A DNA stretch of 64,000 bases from a virus: positions 12,592 through 76,591 of the IMG/VR virus record IMGVR_UViG_3300033149_006345. One strand, given 5' to 3'. The position numbers and the translations under genes were made by a program. The notes beneath the pieces are model-generated. The model saw only the letters and a program-made list of their open reading frames with translations, had not been told where the DNA came from and made no database searches. The first letter of the stretch is position 1, and each line of letters begins with the position of its first letter. Shown here in pieces: positions 1,783 to 42,942 of this stretch.

Positions 1783-2412
1783 CCTTGCCTACAGTTTTTC
1801 ATATCACCAATATACTAAACTCAAAAGTATAAACTAGAACATATCTAATTCGCTTTATACTCGTATCAAACACCTTGCCTGCACCTAAATCTACCTCTAT
1901 CGCCTAATCCCTACCACAGGCAAATCTGGCATTATATGAACGTTGCTATATGCAGGCATTGCCGTATATGCAATCCACTATACACCATGCCTATTTCGTC
2001 TCACAATCGCTTTTCTATGCCTTGCCAATATCAAACACTAGGACTAAGGCGAAAATCGATCACAAGCCAAATTTGATCCATTTGCAACGTACAGATGGTT
2101 TAGCTATGCCTGCATATGCCGGTATGATCGCTGCTATAGTACACAGGCAAGCTTCGATCATCACCTTGAGCACTATACCAGTCGATCCATTGCCCATATT
2201 TCCATGCACCAATATATTGAACATTGCATATGATCATGTGCTGATATATTCCAATATGGCAGCAATATATCCATTGCACCATGTGCTATATATCTATTGC
2301 GGTATACAATACTGCATTTGATCCTATGTGGTATATGGTATAGGGGTATACTCGGGTATACTGTCCAATATACCCAAAGTCCCATTTTGGACACACCGGA
2401 TATACCAAGAAG

Positions 2413-2740
2413 TCAACCTTACACCTAACAAGTTTTCTCAACTCACATATATAAAGAACCTATTAGTTCAACCTTACATCTAACAAATTTCTCCAATCCG
2501 TATATATAAGGAACTATTTAATTCCATATTTCACCTACTAGATTTTTCAAACTTGTATATATAAGGAAGTTGTTTCTATTTTACCTACCATCTAACAACT
2601 CTTTCAAACTCACATATATAAGGAAGTTGTTTTACTTCATCCACCATCTAATAAATTTTTTCAATTCACATATATAAGGAACAACTTAATTCCATATTCC
2701 ACCTGACAATTTTTTCAAACTCGTATATATAACAACTCCA
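2413..2740. repeat. Six degenerate tandem repeats of 55-57 bp
   Basis: TATATAA core at 2448, 2503, 2558, 2615, 2671, 2726; approximate consensus CAYCTAACAAnTTTTTCAAACTCRYATATATAAGGAA. Confidence 0.9.
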
Positions 2741-3066
2741 TTTGCTACACCTGATTGTTTTTCTTGAAACCATTTTTATCCATTCAGATTTTCTTATCGT
2801 CTATTGTTTTTTAAACTTCCATATGTTGAAAGATATATGCAGCAATAAATTTTTCATATACGCATATATATTGGCTTCGTCATATTTTACTTCCCTGAAA
2901 ACTATTGATATTGCAAATTGGAAAAATGAATTTTGGAAAAATATATGGAGGGAAATTTGGATATGGGTATATAAGGGAATGGATAAAAGAAAAGCCATAT
3001 GGGACTCCGTGTTGGAAAATCCCATATGGCTTCCGTTGGGAGGGGGATGTATGGAGGGCTGTATGA

Positions 3067-3168
3067 TTATCTGCGTCTGCCTTTCCCTTTTCTGCTCTTC
3101 TTCAATCGCTTTTGTTTTTCTTTCTTCTTTTGCTTTGCGGTAGGTCTATTCCGTTTTCCCTTGGGCAT
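3067..3168 (-). CDS. 33-aa highly basic peptide MPKGKRNRPTAKQKKKEKQKRLKKSRKGKGRRR
   Basis: Translated by hand; AGGAG 7 nt upstream of the ATG; below the ORF-track size cut-off; last gene of the - strand operon. Confidence 0.65.
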   Translation of the reverse strand: MPKGKRNRPTAKQKKKEKQKRLKKSRKGKGRRR

Positions 3169-3248
3169 ATTGAAGCTCCTGGTTTATTCTCATCGCTTTG
3201 CGTATTGTCTATTCCTTCATTGTACCATAGCCGTTTCAAATTCTGTTA

Positions 3249-3558
3249 TTATACGGTATAAGTATATTTTATTCATTGTTCTTCCTTCCATTTTTCCACT
3301 ATTTGAATTACACCCGGACTATCTATTAGAAATGTTGATGGTGACACAATAATATTATCTTGTTTGGCTACAAGTTCAATAGATATGGTACCCATCCTTT
3401 CCCAAACAGCCTCTTCATCACCTTCTTTTATATCTCTTTTCATACGTTCATAGAGGGTTAAAAAGGCACTGGCTGGATCTGTGCTTAGTACAAGAGCTTC
3501 ACCAAAACTCGCTGCTTTTATACGGTATAAGTATAGCTTATTCATTATTCTTCCTTCC
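3249..3558. repeat. 41-bp direct repeat (3249-3289 and 3518-3558, 38/41 identical) covering an RBS plus gene start
   Basis: TTATACGGTATAAGTATAnnTTATTCATTnTTCTTCCTTCC occurs twice. Confidence 0.9.
3273..3545 (-). CDS. Hypothetical protein
   Basis: ORF with purine-rich RBS, coupled to its neighbours. Confidence 0.7.
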   Translation of the reverse strand: MNKLYLYRIKAASFGEALVLSTDPASAFLTLYERMKRDIKEGDEEAVWERMGTISIELVAKQDNIIVSPSTFLIDSPGVIQIVEKWKEEQ

Positions 3559-12102: not shown

Positions 12103-13453
12103 TTAATATCCCTCCATTCTTTTCTATTTGTATGTCATTCCATAGAACCAACTTTTCTGCCTCTGTAGGTTTTCTACCCTCCTTTCTTATGAACTCTGCC
12201 ATCCTATACTCAAATAGTTCTTTGGCAGGTATATCCTTAACCTTCTTTTGTACTACCTGTGGGAAATATTTCCTGTTTTTCCTGACGTTTCCGTTAATAC
12301 AATCGTGCAACAATCGTCTATTTGCAACGAATCCCGGAAATGGATAAACCGTGTCGTACCAGGGACTACTATACAAGATGTAGAAATAGTTGTCAATAGC
12401 TTTTTTTATCAATTCTTCCGTGCAGTTACGGAAAATCAGGAGGTAAGTGATGGCTATCTGGGATTTATATACCACAGCCGAATCTTTTATGCGGTGAATG
12501 GGAACCCGTTTGGTCCTGTCCGCCTTTTTGTTGTATTTGGATGCTTTGCTGTTCCAATGTTCCAATATACGATACGTTTCCTCCCCCGCCGGTTGTATTT
12601 TCTTTTCAAACAGTTTTGTACGCATATATATCAGCGGGCGATCATATTTGTGGGAAGACAGGTTATGGTGCGACAACCATTTTGACAAGGAAGCAGGTGT
12701 AATCTTTTTATTCTTTTCAATTGGTATATTTTTTCTGGTTTCTGGTATATTTTTTGCGGCGGGCTGTTTTCGTTTGGAATCCCATTTTCTTCTAGCAAGG
12801 GAGTTACCCTTTCCTTTTCCAAGGGAGTCTCCTTTTCCTGGTTCAAGAGAATCCACTTCCTTGAAACAAGGAGGAGAGAGAGAATTTTCGTGCACGCTTT
12901 CGCAAGAAAGCGTTACAGAGGAATCTATGATTCCTCTTAGCGTTTTTGGAAAAGGGAATGTGTACGAACGTAGTGAGTACACATTCCCTCCAAAAACGCT
13001 TTGTACTACGCCAGTAGTACAATTCTTAAACCGGGTGTATTTTTGCACCCGAGGTGAAAAATGTACCCCCTGCTCAGGTGTTGTTGTGCACCCCGTGACT
13101 TCCCTGCACCGTTGCTCATGGATTTTTCTATTAAATTCAAACAGTTTCAGCGTCGTGCTTCCTTCCTTGCCGTTTTGTCTCTGGTAGTCGATCAGCCAAA
13201 GTTCCCGTAATAATTGGGTATATTTTAGCACAAGGCGTTTATTTGCACCTGAGTAGGTCTCGCAAGTTCGCATCAGGCTACCGACGAACTTGCTGTTGAA
13301 GTCGCTGTCGATTTCACATAAGACGAGATAAATCCTGGAAAGATTGCTGGCGTCCTTCTTGCTGAAGTATTTGCGGAATAACCGAAGGACCCTTTTGTCC
13401 CACCATGCGTGTGGTACGTTTCGTTTACGTTGCTGTAATTGCTCTTTTGACAT
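12092..13453 (-). CDS. Putative replication initiator (N-terminal wHTH, repeat-rich linker, helical C-terminal domain)
   Basis: IYLVLCE..SGANKRLVLKYTQLLRELWLIDY is wHTH-like; the low-complexity linker carries DNA repeats and hairpins, as in lambdoid O-type genes. Confidence 0.6.
   Translation of the reverse strand: MSKEQLQQRKRNVPHAWWDKRVLRLFRKYFSKKDASNLSRIYLVLCEIDSDFNSKFVGSLMRTCETYSGANKRLVLKYTQLLRELWLIDYQRQNGKEGSTTLKLFEFNRKIHEQRCREVTGCTTTPEQGVHFSPRVQKYTRFKNCTTGVVQSVFGGNVYSLRSYTFPFPKTLRGIIDSSVTLSCESVHENSLSPPCFKEVDSLEPGKGDSLGKGKGNSLARRKWDSKRKQPAAKNIPETRKNIPIEKNKKITPASLSKWLSHHNLSSHKYDRPLIYMRTKLFEKKIQPAGEETYRILEHWNSKASKYNKKADRTKRVPIHRIKDSAVVYKSQIAITYLLIFRNCTEELIKKAIDNYFYILYSSPWYDTVYPFPGFVANRRLLHDCINGNVRKNRKYFPQVVQKKVKDIPAKELFEYRMAEFIRKEGRKPTEAEKLVLWNDIQIEKNGGILNAG
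12917..13067. other. Cluster of four consecutive hairpins, candidate replication origin
   Basis: Stems at 12917-12937 (9 bp), 12939-13000 (24 bp with a 3-nt bulge), 13001-13022 (9 bp) and 13033-13067 (imperfect). Confidence 0.6.
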
Positions 13454-21683: not shown

Positions 21684-22964
21684 ATGGACAAGGAAAAATT
21701 GATGAAGCAACTTCAGGAGATTAACGAGGAGATCGTCAAGCGTTATATTGGTAGCGATGAATTTACTAATATGATCAACAAGCGCATCCAGACCTTTATG
21801 GAGACTTTGCAAAAGCAGCTCCAGGGGGACTCAACTGCTGGTGCGATTGCTGATGCACAGCCTTCATCGCTTCCATTCGTGCAGGCGACTCTTCCTTACG
21901 CCAACGTCCGAGGAAATCTGATTGTTACACGCCAGGGGTCCGTATTGGATATCACCAAGAAGACTCCGTGGGTGCAGGTTTCCAAGGAAGTGCAGGATTG
22001 GGCCTCTGATTTTCTTCAGTACGTGCAGAGTCGGGGGCGAGTTGTCGGTAAGACTCTTCAGGAAAGTGAGGACCCGAGTGGTGGGTATCTCGTACCGGAA
22101 GAGTTTAGGGCAACTATCCTGATGTACGATGCAGAACCGGCTATTGTTTGGCCCAGGGCTACTGTGTGGCCGATGGCGACCGATAAGCTGGGTATGCCGA
22201 AGTTGGCGCAGTCTCCTGATGGTATTGAGAATGACGACTATGACCATTTTGCGGGTGTAGCGTTTACCTGGACTGATGAAGGTGGTTCCAAGACCGAGAC
22301 GGAACCTGACTTCGAGTTCATTGAGCTTATTGCTCATGAGCTTTCTGGGTATACCGCTATCACTAACACTCTTATGGACGATAGCCCAATTAACCTGATG
22401 AACTTCTTGACCACTTTGTTCAGGGGTGCATGGGTATGGCAGACCGACAAGGCATTTATCCGTCAGGATGGTGCCAATAAGCCGTTGGGGGTGACCAAAG
22501 ACCCGAGTGTGTTGTCTGTGAACCGGAATACTGCTTCCACGGTGAAATATGCCGATCTGCTGAATATGGTTAAGAAGCTCCCCTCGGTATTTGACGCTGG
22601 AGCCGTTTGGTTCTTCAATAAGGAAGTCCATGCTGCTATTCGTAATGAGCGTGATAACAACAACGCTTTGCTGTTGCAGCAAACTTACGATTCGGCGGCT
22701 GGTAAGATGATTGAGATTCTGCTGGGCTACCCTGTAGTCAAGTCCGACGGCAAGACTTATCCGATGGGGACTAAGGGCGATGTCATTTTGGGCAATTGGG
22801 CCTACTATTATATTGGTGACAGGCAGGAGTTCAGGTTGGATACCAGCGAGCATTATCTGTTCCGTAGCAATAAGCTCGCAATCAGGGTAGCCAGCCGTCT
22901 GGATGGTCAGCCAGCGATTCCAGAGGCTTTTGTGGTTCTGGATGACGTGGCTTCCGCCAGCTAA
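21684..22964 (+). CDS. Major capsid protein (HK97 fold)
   Basis: GGYLVPEEF, WTDEG, ILLGYPVV, ILGNW..YYIGDR, RLDG; biased codon usage typical of high expression. Confidence 0.95.
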   Translation: MDKEKLMKQLQEINEEIVKRYIGSDEFTNMINKRIQTFMETLQKQLQGDSTAGAIADAQPSSLPFVQATLPYANVRGNLIVTRQGSVLDITKKTPWVQVSKEVQDWASDFLQYVQSRGRVVGKTLQESEDPSGGYLVPEEFRATILMYDAEPAIVWPRATVWPMATDKLGMPKLAQSPDGIENDDYDHFAGVAFTWTDEGGSKTETEPDFEFIELIAHELSGYTAITNTLMDDSPINLMNFLTTLFRGAWVWQTDKAFIRQDGANKPLGVTKDPSVLSVNRNTASTVKYADLLNMVKKLPSVFDAGAVWFFNKEVHAAIRNERDNNNALLLQQTYDSAAGKMIEILLGYPVVKSDGKTYPMGTKGDVILGNWAYYYIGDRQEFRLDTSEHYLFRSNKLAIRVASRLDGQPAIPEAFVVLDDVASAS

Positions 22965-22997: not shown

Positions 22998-23450
22998 ATG
23001 AGTGCAAAGCGTGATATGACCAATAATACGCTGGTGATTCCTTTTGTTACCCATACCACGCACCAGACCAACACCGGCATCTTGACCAGCAATTATGATA
23101 CGATGCGTGGTGGAGCCAACCCGACGAGGATGTTGCTGATTTTGCTGATGTCCAGTTGGGGAAGCGGTGGCTCGGTTACTGTGCGGGTACAGGATTGTAA
23201 TACCAGCAACGGTACTTTCTCTACTCGGGCAACTTTGGGGGCTGCCAACCAGTCCACCGGGCAGACTTGTTTTATGGCGGAGGTGAGCGATTTTCGCCGG
23301 TTTGTCCGTCTCAGCTATGATGTGACTGGTGCAGCTTGTACCCTGTCTATCATTGGTATTTGTCAGCGTGGGCGAAAGGAGCCGGTGACGCAGTATGATG
23401 CTGTTGGCAAGCTGTCTGTGTCCCAGACGGTTGCTCCTGAAGCCTCGTAA
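22998..23450 (+). CDS. Putative capsid decoration/cement protein (Ser/Thr-rich beta protein)
   Basis: Immediately after the MCP with the same codon bias; VTVRVQD..RRFVRL pattern. Confidence 0.65.
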   Translation: MSAKRDMTNNTLVIPFVTHTTHQTNTGILTSNYDTMRGGANPTRMLLILLMSSWGSGGSVTVRVQDCNTSNGTFSTRATLGAANQSTGQTCFMAEVSDFRRFVRLSYDVTGAACTLSIIGICQRGRKEPVTQYDAVGKLSVSQTVAPEAS

Positions 23451-23465: not shown

Positions 23466-23501
23466 CTTCCCTACCTGTACGCTTTTGTACAGGTAGGGAA
23501 G
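23466..23501 (+). promoter_or_regulatory. 15-bp perfect hairpin (attenuator, processing or stabilising element)
   Basis: CTTCCCTACCTGTAC-gctttt-GTACAGGTAGGGAAG, without a strong U tract. Confidence 0.7.
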
Positions 23502-23544
23502 TTCATATATAAGATTACAGCGAGACCAGAAAAGGAGAAAGCAG

Positions 23545-23859
23545 ATGGCTGTTAAGGTTAAACTGACAAAACTATCTTTGATTAGACGGTATAGAAAATC
23601 TGTATTGGAAGTAAGTGAGGCGGAAGCCGCCCGGATGATCGGATCAGGGCTGGCTGTAGCAGTAACTTCTTTTGATGGACCACCGGTTAATAAACTGGTA
23701 GCTTCTCCTGGTATTAAGAAAGAAGTAGCAGAAATAAAGGAGGCTGATACCGCAGAAAACCCTACTGGGAAAGCGGAGGAACCTCCGAAACCTCCGCAGA
23801 AAAACAAAAAGAAAAAATCGAAGAAGTCAAGGAAGAAAGTCAAGGTAAATATCCAGTAG
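23545..23859 (+). CDS. Small post-capsid protein; candidate frameshift donor
   Basis: AAAGGAG RBS; EVSEAEAARMIGSGLAV and PPVNKLV resemble small head-associated proteins. Confidence 0.75.
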   Translation: MAVKVKLTKLSLIRRYRKSVLEVSEAEAARMIGSGLAVAVTSFDGPPVNKLVASPGIKKEVAEIKEADTAENPTGKAEEPPKPPQKNKKKKSKKSRKKVKVNIQ

Positions 23860-24818
23860 CACGTTGGTCTCCTTCTTTACCCTATGCACTTTGTAAGGTT
23901 GGTTGGATACAGGACGCTGAGGTATTAGGTGGTGCTGAATTATCCAATCTACAGATAATCAAACGAGGTCTGGAGTTAGGTTTTGCTATTAGGGTTATAA
24001 CTCCGGACAGTTTTGATCGTGACTGGATTGCCATTTCTGACTTTCTCATTTTCAATAACTTTTATACCTTTCCATCAAATCTTTGGCATTATTTGTTGCA
24101 AGTCATTTGGGAGTATAGGAAGCCTTATGTAATATATTCTCATGATCATCGGGATATATATGGTGAGACTGCTAGACTCTCTTTTGCATGGCGTTGGTTT
24201 AAGCATTCCTTCTTGAATGTCTTTATTTCTCCGGCACATTATGCCAACTTTAAGAAATGTTTAGGCAGTGCTGCCGAGCCGCATTTTATCTTACCCCCAC
24301 CGATAGACACCGAATTTTTCTACCCCAGGGAAGAAGTTACTAGGAAACCAAAGACTGTTGTTAATCTTACCGGTAGATTGGTTAGCAGTAAGGGTCTGAT
24401 GAATGTTTATAAGTGGGCCGCAGCAAACCCTGACTATAAGGTAAATGTTTATACGAAGTATGCCGAAGGTACCAGCGGTAAGGTTTTGGAGACTAAGAAT
24501 AATATAACTATCCATAAACCTGTACCATATGCCCTTTTGCCGTATATCTACTCTGAACATGAGTATGTGTTACATCTTCCTGAAGATTGGGAAGCGGCGG
24601 GGAGGACATTGGTAGAGGGTTTATTGTGTGGTTGGACATTGGTAGAGGGTTTATTGTGTGGTTGTATCCCGATTTGCAATAGTAAAGTAGGAGTTGCTAG
24701 TTTCGCACCGGATCTATTGTCATACGGTCGTGAAAATCTGGCTGTGATTTTGGAGGAAGGACAGTATATTTTTTGGTACAATATTTATCGGTATTTCCAG
24801 TTATTGGAGGAAAGATAG
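23748..24818 (+). CDS. GT4-like glycosyltransferase with no canonical start upstream of its N-terminal motif
   Basis: Frame open from 23748; KVGWIQD..GGAELSN at 23895 lies upstream of the first TTG (24093); GRL..KG; EAAGRTLVE motif. Confidence 0.8.
   Translation, partial: YRRKPYWESGGTSETSAEKQKEKIEEVKEESQGKYPVARWSPSLPYALCKVGWIQDAEVLGGAELSNLQIIKRGLELGFAIRVITPDSFDRDWIAISDFLIFNNFYTFPSNLWHYLLQVIWEYRKPYVIYSHDHRDIYGETARLSFAWRWFKHSFLNVFISPAHYANFKKCLGSAAEPHFILPPPIDTEFFYPREEVTRKPKTVVNLTGRLVSSKGLMNVYKWAAANPDYKVNVYTKYAEGTSGKVLETKNNITIHKPVPYALLPYIYSEHEYVLHLPEDWEAAGRTLVEGLLCGWTLVEGLLCGCIPICNSKVGVASFAPDLLSYGRENLAVILEEGQYIFWYNIYRYFQLLEER
24604..24663. repeat. Perfect 30-bp tandem duplication
   Basis: GGACATTGGTAGAGGGTTTATTGTGTGGTT occurs twice in tandem. 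Confidence 0.95.
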
Positions 24819-38516: not shown

Positions 38517-39577
38517 ACCGTGTTGCTGTGAATTTTGGTAATGGGCTGGGTAATTTTGTAATGTTGACGCCTACTCTGCATGGTTTATCTCGGATGTATA
38601 ATGCCGCTATCGACTTGGTTTTTGATGATACATGGCGGGATAGTAGACGGAAGTCTGTAGAGGAATTGTTCGCAAGTTGTTTTTATGGCGGTGAGATTAT
38701 AAATTTTACCGGCCCATCTTCACTTGATTTGGAGCGATATAAGGCGATCTATTGGACTTCTCATGGGGAGGTCAATCCTGCTTGGGAGTATATGCGGGAA
38801 GTAGCGACGATTAAAGCCTCATTTGAGGATGAGGATGATACCTGGAGACAAGTCAAAATACATGAGGTTGATTTTTATCTGAAGCCACTTATTAAACTTG
38901 GTTATATTAAACGACCGACCCCTCAGTTGTTTGGTTTTAACGATGTCAGAAGGGTGGTAAGAAAGGGTTGGAAGACCAGGAGAGGACAAGTTTTCAATGG
39001 GCTTTTGCCTTTGGTTATCGGTTTCTGTAATGGGTTTTTTGGAGAGGAAGACAGCGTTTGGTCAAGGAAAGCATGGCCGTATTTTGGTGAATTGGCGTTG
39101 ATGTTGTACGGGTTTTTTGGGGATTTGGTTGATATTCAATTATTTGGAAAAGGAGCACAAGAGAGACGATGGGCAGAAACGGTAGTATCTATGCTAGAAG
39201 CTAAGAATTACTATGCAAAAAATTTTGTTGACAGGCTTACTTTACCTCATACAATAAAGAAGATGGGTGATGTAGATATTTTTGTTACTACGGATACTGG
39301 TTTAATGCATGTGGCTGATGCCATGGGGATACCGTCGGTGATTTTATTTGGGGCGACATTGGCGAGTAAGAACGGACCATACACTATGCTACGAAAGCGA
39401 CTGGTTCATAGTTTGGAAGGCTGTGCTCCCTGTCAGAACACTTACCATTTCCATCTGTGCAAAGATTACAAATGTATGAGGTCCATCACTCCGGCAGATG
39501 TTTTTCCACAAATTTTGGCGTTGTGTAAATCTATGGGCTTTGTATTTCCTATTTTAAGGGGGCGCAAATGGCGATAG
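38450..39577 (+). CDS. GT9 (ADP-heptose transferase-like) glycosyltransferase
   Basis: GLGNFVMLTP, HEVD, KAWPYF, TDTGLMHVADAMGIPSVILFGAT, C-terminal CAPCQ..C..CM. Confidence 0.88.
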   Translation: MGTQGKVVVNLGKWKKPRYKLLNRVAVNFGNGLGNFVMLTPTLHGLSRMYNAAIDLVFDDTWRDSRRKSVEELFASCFYGGEIINFTGPSSLDLERYKAIYWTSHGEVNPAWEYMREVATIKASFEDEDDTWRQVKIHEVDFYLKPLIKLGYIKRPTPQLFGFNDVRRVVRKGWKTRRGQVFNGLLPLVIGFCNGFFGEEDSVWSRKAWPYFGELALMLYGFFGDLVDIQLFGKGAQERRWAETVVSMLEAKNYYAKNFVDRLTLPHTIKKMGDVDIFVTTDTGLMHVADAMGIPSVILFGATLASKNGPYTMLRKRLVHSLEGCAPCQNTYHFHLCKDYKCMRSITPADVFPQILALCKSMGFVFPILRGRKWR

Positions 39578-40185
39578 ATACGACTATTTCCTTTGTAACT
39601 GATATTAATGATTTGGTTGGGTGGGGTGGTCTTACTTCTAGCGATGTTACAGCTAACTCCACTCTCCTTGAGACATTGGTTAACCAAGTTGCTTCCTTTA
39701 TGGAAAGATATACCAGCAGGAAGTTAAAAGCACGGGATTATGATTACAGCTCTGATTCAGACACGACGGATTCCATTGGGGATGGAGACGGGACTACCAG
39801 ATTTTATACGAAGCAATGGCCCATAAATTCTGTGACCACACTTGTTATTGGGGATGACACTATTTCCGCCGCCTCTGATTGGGATGATGACGGGTATTTT
39901 ATCTATCCCAATGAAGGTTGCATATATTACGAAGATGGATTTGACAAATACAAGCAGAATATCAAGCTAAAATATAATGCTGGCTATAATGCGGATCATT
40001 CCGAGTATGATCTGCTCAAAATGATAACTTGTGCTTTGGTGGGTTATATTTGGGAGAATAGAGATAAACTAGGTTTTAGGCAGGAGTTCCTTGGTAGGTA
40101 CCGTTATACAAAAGGCTCTTTTAAGGATGTAGACTCTTGGGTATGGGAAACTTTGGACTCTTTTAAGAGGCGAGGGGTGGCATGA
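39568..40185 (+). CDS. Head-tail connector/adaptor protein
   Basis: MERYTSRKL, WPINSV, IKLKYNAGY; position. Confidence 0.8.
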   Translation: MAIDTTISFVTDINDLVGWGGLTSSDVTANSTLLETLVNQVASFMERYTSRKLKARDYDYSSDSDTTDSIGDGDGTTRFYTKQWPINSVTTLVIGDDTISAASDWDDDGYFIYPNEGCIYYEDGFDKYKQNIKLKYNAGYNADHSEYDLLKMITCALVGYIWENRDKLGFRQEFLGRYRYTKGSFKDVDSWVWETLDSFKRRGVA

Positions 40186-42229: not shown

Positions 42230-42616
42230 ATGAACAAAGATAATGTACAGCAAGATCGAGTAAGGAACTTTGATGAATATGATCAGCCTGAGAGATTTAA
42301 GTTTCGGGGGGAGGTTTACGAAATCCCCCCGATCTCTCAGGATACTTCTGACAGATTGGCTGCTATTTCCGAGAGACTGATTGCTCTTACTGATGAGGGC
42401 AAATATACTGAAGCGAATGCGTGTGTATTCGAGTATGTTTTGGTGGCTATGCTGGGGGACGACTATACCCCAGAGAAATTGGAGGAGATGAGGCAAGATC
42501 GCAAGTATAGGGCTTTCCCCAGAAGGATGTTGCATGATTTGATGTCGTTGATAAATACAATGCAGGGGCTTCCTTCGGAAATGACCCCTGTAGAGGAGGT
42601 TAAGGCAAAAAAGTAA
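42230..42616 (+). CDS. Tail assembly chaperone (gpG-like)
   Basis: Lies between tail tube and tape measure; ends GCA AAA AAG TAA. Confidence 0.85.
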   Translation: MNKDNVQQDRVRNFDEYDQPERFKFRGEVYEIPPISQDTSDRLAAISERLIALTDEGKYTEANACVFEYVLVAMLGDDYTPEKLEEMRQDRKYRAFPRRMLHDLMSLINTMQGLPSEMTPVEEVKAKK

Positions 42617-42942
42617 TAGACCGCTTGAGGATATATTTTGACATTATGAAAGCCTCAAGCGGAGCGATTACTTTTAAGGAGCTAAGAGAGATGCCATTCG
42701 CACAGCTATCTCTCTTAGCTCGTGTAGCCAAGGCTACGCAAATAGAAGATGAAATGCGGTTCATTGGCGGGGTTGCCACTGGTACCTCCGGTAATGCGAA
42801 GCATATGGATAGTCTTGAATTTAGGTATAACCAACTTTTATTTATAAAACCGACTACAGATAGAAACAAGTTACTACAGATCAAGGAGAGAATGAAGAAA
42901 AAGCAACAAAAAACAGTTGGCTCCAAACGACGAGGTAAATAA
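42607..42942 (+). CDS. Tail assembly chaperone extension (gpGT-like) via -1 frameshift
   Basis: A AAA AAG at 42607-42613, GGAGGT at 42595-42600, -1 frame open to 42942. Confidence 0.85.
   Translation, partial: KKVIDRLRIYFDIMKASSGAITFKELREMPFAQLSLLARVAKATQIEDEMRFIGGVATGTSGNAKHMDSLEFRYNQLLFIKPTTDRNKLLQIKERMKKKQQKTVGSKRRGK

Follow-up and report, generated by a model that had tools for sequence, protein, structure and literature searches.

A probable conserved –1 frameshift fuses a small head-module protein to a glycosyltransferase in an uncultured phage

This study concerns a pair of overlapping reading frames in a 64,000-nucleotide stretch of viral DNA (positions 12,592 to 76,591 of IMG/VR virus record IMGVR_UViG_3300033149_006345; hereafter ‘the window’), which is part of a 76.6-kb contig of an uncultured phage assembled from a metagenome. 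A small open reading frame (ORF) of the head module is overlapped there by the frame of a glycosyltransferase that lacks a start codon of its own (Table 1), and it is probable that a conserved translational –1 frameshift joins the two into a fusion protein of ∼424 amino acids (aa). Our findings are best explained if a single ancestral gene, composed of a head-module domain, a flexible basic linker and an enzyme of the GT-B type, is now represented by the small ORF as one half and the transferase frame as the other. A fusion of this kind, made by a –1 shift within an A-rich lysine run, had been proposed from the letters of the window alone (the sequence-only reading). Every coordinate given in that proposal holds (the ORFs and their overlap, the TTG at 24093, the Shine-Dalgarno (SD)-like motifs, the stem, the lysine run and a further –1 site at 42607), and the fusion itself came through the comparative tests described below, so that the proposal as a whole is upheld in part; its further suggestions, namely tethering of the enzyme to the procapsid by way of the fusion, an initiating role for this transferase and a predominance of the 104-aa form, are hypothetical.

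The transferase frame is open from 23748 to its stop at 24816–24818, lies at –1 relative to the small ORF and overlaps it by 112 nt. Its earliest ATG, GTG or TTG is the TTG at 24093, 66 codons past the point (23895) from which the first strand of the enzyme, together with its GGAELS motif, is encoded. When these 66 start-less codons were compared between the window and L003, a contig with the same arrangement, 47 of the 66 residues were identical, 28 of the 47 being specified by different codons, and the differences at codon positions 1, 2 and 3 numbered 19, 9 and 40, respectively; the other two frames of the same segment (23895–24092) hold 4–7 stops. To judge from this pattern of substitution, the start-less segment is under purifying selection, i.e. 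translated. The body of the transferase showed 80 synonymous and 21 nonsynonymous differences when L003 was compared with another such contig, L045.

Selection on the start-less segment bears directly on the possibility that two separate proteins are made, with the small ORF translated alone and the transferase either initiated through coupling or re-initiation from a codon of non-canonical type, or made in truncated form from TTG 24093. Stand-alone small proteins with the domain of the small ORF do exist (L062 and, further, P0030 and P0033–P0040), the window offers an ATC in the transferase frame at 23817, and in one distant relative (L040) the transferase starts right at the first strand. 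However, an enzyme started at 24093 would be without its first strand and its GGAELS loop and would keep only a minor part of the first Rossmann half, even though the 66 codons are under purifying selection, and there is no start in the transferase frame after the 0-frame stop. Moreover, no start codon precedes the GGAELS motif in the transferase frame of L003/L004, L045, L047 or L058, and in the L003 group the segment from the upstream stop to the first strand contains none of ATG, GTG, TTG, CTG, ATT, ATC and ATA (as established by reading, not by script). L040 is the only one of 41 related viral loci with such a transferase start, and an independent start in homologs, which the sequence-only reading had named as an outcome that would speak against it, was seen in this distant locus only. 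Separate synthesis of two proteins therefore strikes us as very improbable. An ATG at 23884 was also considered as a hidden start and rejected: it lies in the 0 frame, opens an ORF of 14 codons and has no equivalent in the L003 group.

The proposed fusion exists as a single gene in related phages. At 38 of the 41 loci the transferase carries an N-terminal extension of 70–160 aa that has its own ATG and is in frame with the enzyme, and in the nearest in-frame relatives (L005–L007 and P0012–P0020) this extension is recognisably the small ORF, whose first ∼50 residues align to the N-terminal domain of the fused proteins. The N-terminal domain was likewise in frame in all nine of the more distant protein homologs (37–43% identity, 369–406 aa). 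An AlphaFold2 (AF2) model of the in-frame relative P0012 (predicted local distance difference test (pLDDT) score of 87) displays a small β-α-β-α-β domain at residues 1–38, a disordered linker at residues 40–65 and a clear GT-B fold with two Rossmann-like halves, and an AF2 model of the small ORF (pLDDT 82) has the same β-α-β-α-β order. Foldseek matched the P0012 model to HepE, PimA, BshA, WaaG and Gtf3 in the PDB with E-values of 1e-11 to 1e-8. Membership among the GT4-like enzymes is based on fold, because the sequence family is divergent and its Pfam scores fall below the curated cut-offs (20.1 bits for the window protein against Glyco_transf_4, cut-off 28.5; 22.4 for P0012 against Glycos_transf_1, cut-off 26.4). 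The residues of the E-x7-E motif in the C-terminal half are invariant across the transferase family.

The small ORF is laid out as an N-terminal α/β domain (∼residues 1–45), a PPVNK-type motif, an acidic/Pro-rich linker, the Lys run and a 13-aa tail, and it showed 23 synonymous and 4 nonsynonymous differences between L003 and L045. At the L062 locus, which is without the transferase cluster, a stand-alone homolog of 78 aa lies immediately 5′ of a head-tail adaptor gene whose product has 37% identity to the adaptor of the window. Because its domain occurs stand-alone, and in L062 beside the head-tail adaptor gene, the small ORF is, by homology, a genuine head-module gene onto which the transferase was joined. 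The zero-frame product would then correspond to the stand-alone small head-module protein and the trans-frame product to the direct fusion of the sister phages.

The –1 arrangement is not confined to the window. Five other contigs from five metagenomes (L003, L004, L045, L047 and L058) keep it, with the small ORF in frame X and the transferase in frame X–1; L003 and L004, which come from two metagenomes, are 99.95% identical over 2 kb spanning the locus. Both findings that the sequence-only reading had looked to for corroboration, namely natural in-frame fusions and homologous loci with the same overlap, were thus made. That reading had also entertained a 1-nt read error as the cause, which is unlikely on these comparisons because five independent contigs differ in sequence yet keep the frame relation. 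The wider suspicion is that of an assembly or sequencing indel, or of a recent pseudogene, the true gene being a plain in-frame fusion or the transferase being dead. It is invited by the metagenomic origin of the contig, by the low-complexity, A-rich nature of the junction and by an odd exact 30-bp duplication in the same transferase gene. As opposed to this, the five contigs differ in Lys-run length as well as in sequence, the clade has diverged to ∼60% protein identity with both the start-less segment and the transferase body under purifying selection, and the window and the L003 group would each need the same error. Sequence comparison has in our view largely refuted this explanation already, and we find it scarcely credible.

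In a database of 5.8 billion clusters, eight close protein homologs (54–63% identity) were recovered and all eight gene calls begin after the first strand, whereas the fused form of ∼425 aa at an identity of at least 54% was not found, that length range having been covered by the search. In a quick maximum-likelihood tree the window and nine other rows form one clade of ten (Shimodaira-Hasegawa-like approximate likelihood ratio test (SH-aLRT) support of 97); these nine rows are either shown to be shifted, or truncated gene calls, or (L044) cut at a contig end. The sister clade is wholly in frame, and no in-frame member of the shifted clade was found. Since one extra A would restore the fusion, the failure to find any in-frame member in the clade argues that the out-of-frame state is maintained and not merely tolerated. 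P0009, the deepest branch of the clade, and P0034, a stand-alone small ORF with a Lys run, have a common source and a common longest contig of 1980 bp, which suggests that they lie on one contig. As a separate observation, the C-terminal tails of the stand-alone small ORFs P0027 and P0029 (also P0028 and P0031) of the sister clade resemble the YGGAELSNQ segment of the transferase read in the +1 frame (e.g. ...MVGLSYQT), so that the transferase would again be at –1, the junction in this case lying close to an RRVV motif and not in a Lys run. Such small ORFs could stem from lineages that became frameshifted independently, or from errors in the contigs.

In every –1 contig the shift window, bounded 5′ by the last stop of the –1 frame and 3′ by the stop of the 0 frame, holds a Lys run encoded by AAA and AAG. 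The run of the window (0-frame codons CAG AAA AAC AAA AAG AAA AAA at 23797–23817) is the sole A-rich, shift-prone stretch within its shift window (23748–23859) and provides the Z_ZZN tetramers A_AAG, A_AAA and A_AAC, all at 23799–23817. L003, L045 and L058 have 2–3 copies of G AAA AAG in the run, and L047 has in addition a canonical A AAA AAG. In E. coli, A_AA.G is the most shift-prone tetramer (PMC4066793). A GGAGG lies 10 nt 5′ of the first G AAA AAG in L003 and L047, and the window has an SD-like AAGGAGG at 23737 along with the GGAGG enclosed by the hairpin that precedes the run (–17.1 kcal/mol, better than shuffles; z –2.65). Over the 57 nt from the Lys run to the 0-frame stop, the four differences between L003 and L045 are all synonymous in the –1 frame and none is synonymous in the 0 frame, and this stretch is 7% diverged as compared to 15–17% in its flanks, the numbers being small. 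The genome also has an internal point of comparison in its tail-assembly-chaperone genes, for which the –1 site reported at 42607 was confirmed: ORFs 42230–42616 and 42625–42942 stand in a 0/–1 relation, and the canonical heptamer A AAA AAG (42607–42613) is followed by TAA and preceded, at 7 nt, by GGAGG.

The composition of the junction also raises the possibility of transcriptional slippage, in which RNA polymerase adds one A in the Lys stretch and some mRNAs encode the fusion in frame, with no ribosomal shift. Runs of A make up the junction (A5, A5 and A6 in the window, A8 in L047), and the genes of the window strongly avoid the in-frame dicodon AAA AAA (8 observed, against 29 expected on the basis of Lys codon usage), an avoidance that would follow if extended A runs were prone to error. 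However, the A runs known to give appreciable transcriptional slippage in bacteria measure roughly 7–9 or more, whereas no run of A exceeds 5 in L003, L045 or L058, and the conserved feature is the 0-frame AAA AAG dicodon and not a long homopolymer. We regard transcriptional slippage as unlikely. A third way of restoring the frame would act on the DNA itself. Homopolymer switches are well known in bacterial glycosyltransferase genes, and an A-rich run that gained and lost single bases could act as an on/off switch for the transferase and hence for virion glycosylation. The length of the Lys run does differ among the contigs, and for Helicobacter pylori futC a poly-C tract and a translational frameshift are both mentioned (PMC2752801). 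But the Lys codons of the run number 7, 8, 9 or 10, so that whole codons alone have been gained or lost, every observed difference being a multiple of 3; the six consensus sequences share a single ‘off’ register, with none in frame; and runs of A5–A6 are short for efficient slipped-strand mispairing. Phase variation of this type is very improbable.

We infer a ribosomal event of the following form. Ribosomes would initiate at ATG 23545 and most would finish at TAG 23857 to give the 104-aa protein, while a fraction would slip back one base when decoding the Lys run at 23799–23817, by re-pairing of tRNA-Lys of the A_AAG / A_AAA type. The slipped ribosomes would read on to 24818 and produce a protein of ∼424 aa (89 + 335 residues if the slip were at 23809–23811), which would be the only form with the essential first strand and GGAELS loop of the enzyme.

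Several observations weigh against a programmed –1 shift in the window or limit its reach. (i) A canonical X_XXZ_ZZN heptamer is missing from the Lys run of the window, where the sites are only C AAA AAG, G AAA AAA and G AAA AAC, and E. coli tetramers without a stimulator barely exceed background (PMC4066793). (ii) The closest GGAGG is 20–26 nt 5′ of the candidate sites and lies inside the hairpin. (iii) No downstream stimulatory structure stands out, with fold z-scores of –0.11 to +0.74 versus shuffles (pseudoknots were not searched for), and folding of the alignment downstream yielded 0 compensatory pairs. (iv) The genes of the window show no avoidance of the in-frame dicodon AAA AAG (34 observed, 27 expected), and the motif alone is therefore not strongly shifty in this genome. 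(v) Comparisons of the 57-nt overlap stretch that involve L047 are mixed: when the L045- and L047-specific changes are summed, synonymous and nonsynonymous ones number 5 and 3, respectively, in the transferase frame and 2 and 5 in the 0 frame. (vi) The DNA-level evidence comes from two sub-lineages only, the window and the closely related L003 group. (vii) The transferase copy of the window might be impaired by a 10-aa duplication in a conserved helix. A scan against Rfam gave no relevant match.

In light of the missing canonical heptamer, the distant and hairpin-bound GGAGG, the lack of a downstream structure, the tolerance of AAA AAG dicodons and the weakness of lone tetramers, the proposed frameshift may be inefficient, which would be fitting where the product is an enzyme. 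Another possibility is that its efficiency depends on the tandem arrangement of the sites, on nascent poly-Lys or on some undetected element. We also noted that an 8–10-bp stem (GGAGGAAG/CTTCCTCC) brackets the Lys run in the contigs of the L003 group and that its 3′ arm mimics the anti-SD sequence; the comparable GGAGG/CCTCC stem of the window sits wholly 5′ of the Lys run.

The 30-bp tandem duplication in the transferase gene of the window has no counterpart in any of the 15 aligned homologs; either the assembly introduced it in error or it arose very recently.

Among phages, tail chaperones provide most of the well-known cases of programmed –1 frameshifting, the others being some capsid proteins and added immunoglobulin (Ig)-like domains. 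Here, by comparison, the partners in the apparent frameshift fusion are a small head-module protein and an entire glycosyltransferase, and the arrangement is kept across a clade, while the sister clade has a one-frame fusion. Our literature search turned up no phage in which frameshifting is reported to join a glycosyltransferase to a head-module protein, and the word ‘glycosyltransferase’ was not found in the accessible part of the review by Atkins et al.

Akin to E. coli dnaX (tau/gamma) and to cassettes of the IS3/IS911 type, the site proposed here would have tRNA-Lys slip at the Lys codons AAA AAG and yield two products with a common N-terminal part, and in L003 and L047 the likeness extends to the SD-like GGAGG ∼10 nt upstream. 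Unlike those cassettes, the window has only the tetramer-like C AAA AAG and G AAA AAA, in tandem within the Lys run, and no downstream hairpin was detected; and whereas the shift in dnaX truncates the protein, the shift here would add 335 residues. The addition of Ig-like domains to phage proteins by frameshifting (Fraser et al. 2006, as cited in PMC5009743) resembles our case, as do the phage gpG/gpGT pair and T7 gene 10A/10B, in that a late structural operon encodes an extended and a short form that share their N-terminal part. It differs from all three in that the added part is a complete GT-B enzyme and the short product a small head-module protein. With H. pylori futC, which encodes an α-1,2-fucosyltransferase, the common element is that full-length synthesis of a glycosyltransferase can depend on a translational –1 frameshift; Wang and colleagues reportedly described an A AAA AAG cassette in futC in 1999. 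Unlike the locus studied here, futC is a bacterial lipopolysaccharide gene that is also subject to poly-C phase variation; it does not combine two domains that occur separately as well, and it is not viral.

In retroviral gag-pol and in the OrfA/OrfAB pair of insertion sequences (IS), a small upstream protein is likewise extended by a –1 shift into an enzyme-bearing fusion, which in our case would presumably be rarer than the short product. The proteins are unrelated, and binding of the capsid by the N-terminal domain, or its assembly into the capsid, is hypothetical. With these qualifications, one may tentatively imagine a gag-pol-like route to virion glycosylation, in which the small ORF product acts on or binds the assembling head, the –1 shift supplies the capsid with a fixed, minor fraction bearing the glycosyltransferase, and selection keeps the gene out of frame. 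We consider this rather doubtful. If it were true, the first enzyme of a 16-kb glycan pathway would reach the capsid in a set ratio, and the gene would be kept out of frame though a single A insertion would restore the fusion of the sister clade.

Searches aimed at the N-terminal domain gave no usable assignment of its fold, the best match in VIA-align being the N-domain of ribosomal bL9 (Z 4.3; the C-domain of lambda gpFI had Z 3.0) and the best E-value in BFVD being 0.06. At the level of families, Pfam returned DUF7302 and DUF7210 below threshold only and PHROGs no match. A homolog search with the small ORF alone retrieved only itself, the relatives having come from a profile search. Repeated matches of the domain profile in the 1500-aa proteins P0026 and P0032 look spurious and were rejected, these being YadA-stalk or Ig-repeat proteins.

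In the virion glycosylation of actinobacteriophages, phage glycosyltransferase genes lie beside the capsid gene (Freeman et al. 2023, as cited in PMC13313380). In a similar manner, a gene of the transferase family discussed here directly follows the HK97-type capsid gene, on its 3′ side, in ∼50 loci. In the window the transferase genes lie inside the head module beside the major capsid gene, as in a virion glycosylation module, attachment of the glycan itself being putative. To our knowledge, neither an N-terminal targeting domain nor a frameshift has been described for actinobacteriophage glycosylation.

The shifted and fused clades form a natural paired comparison for asking why recoding is maintained. 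The conserved, uncharacterised N-terminal domain, which also occurs as a stand-alone head-module gene, offers a handle on glycosylation directed at the phage virion. There is a lesson for annotation as well: gene callers truncate the enzyme in every member of the clade, and its first 66 or more residues are therefore missing from protein databases.

Table 1. Coordinates of the features discussed, in window positions unless a contig is named.
Feature	Position	Strand	Remarks
SD-like AAGGAG	23532..23537	+	7 nt 5′ of the small-ORF ATG; direct reading
Small head-module ORF, 0 frame, 104 aa	23545..23859	+	ATG 23545, TAG 23857–23859
TGA closing the –1 (transferase) frame on its 5′ side	23745..23747	+	5′ limit of the shift window
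Hairpin GCGGAGG/CCTCCGC	23772..23798	+	Ends 1 nt before the Lys run; encloses SD-like GGAGG 23775–23779
Candidate slip region, 0-frame Lys/Asn run	23799..23817	+	Sites G AAA AAC, C AAA AAG, G AAA AAA
Linker in the –1 frame, ∼28 codons	23811..23894	+	From slip region to first strand; no stop, no start codon
0-frame TAG ending the small ORF	23857..23859	+	3′ limit of the shift window
GT-B (GT4-like) glycosyltransferase domain, –1 frame	23895..24818	+	Includes 66 codons (23895–24092) before any canonical start
Exact 30-bp tandem duplication (10 aa, in frame)	24604..24663	+	In the conserved helix after the E-x7-E motif
–1 site of the tail-assembly chaperone (internal comparison)	42593..42616	+	GGAGG, 7 nt, A AAA AAG TAA
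Stem GGAGGAAG/CTTCCTCC	L003:4019-4062, L045:2950-3002, L047:608-663, L058:2707-2756		

Pfam and PHROGs place the locus in a head module that runs from portal and protease genes to the HK97-type capsid protein (21684–22964), then a 150-aa protein (22998–23450) and the small ORF, which is separated from the head-tail adaptor gene (39568–40185) by ∼15.7 kb of transferase, methyltransferase and sulfotransferase-like genes. Between the 150-aa gene and the small ORF lies a perfect 13-bp hairpin (23470–23500) without a T tract; it was not called as a terminator in a promoter and terminator scan, in which nothing rose above the shuffled background. The capsid protein has only ∼25% identity to those of cultured and GenBank phages, and the transferase family had no match in 50,697 GenBank phages. 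Its sole match in 185,579 species genomes is L061 (CAZIKS010000127.1), an in-frame fused copy on an 11-kb contig of an uncultured Pirellulales metagenome-assembled genome, which points weakly to a Planctomycetota host, unless the phage contig was mis-binned. Lastly, the match to the capsid gene in L003 is split by ∼780 bp (query 1–135 at 1191–1601 and query 134–426 at 2385–3266), whereas that in the otherwise near-identical L004 is continuous (1983–3266); the split may reflect an intron or a homing element.

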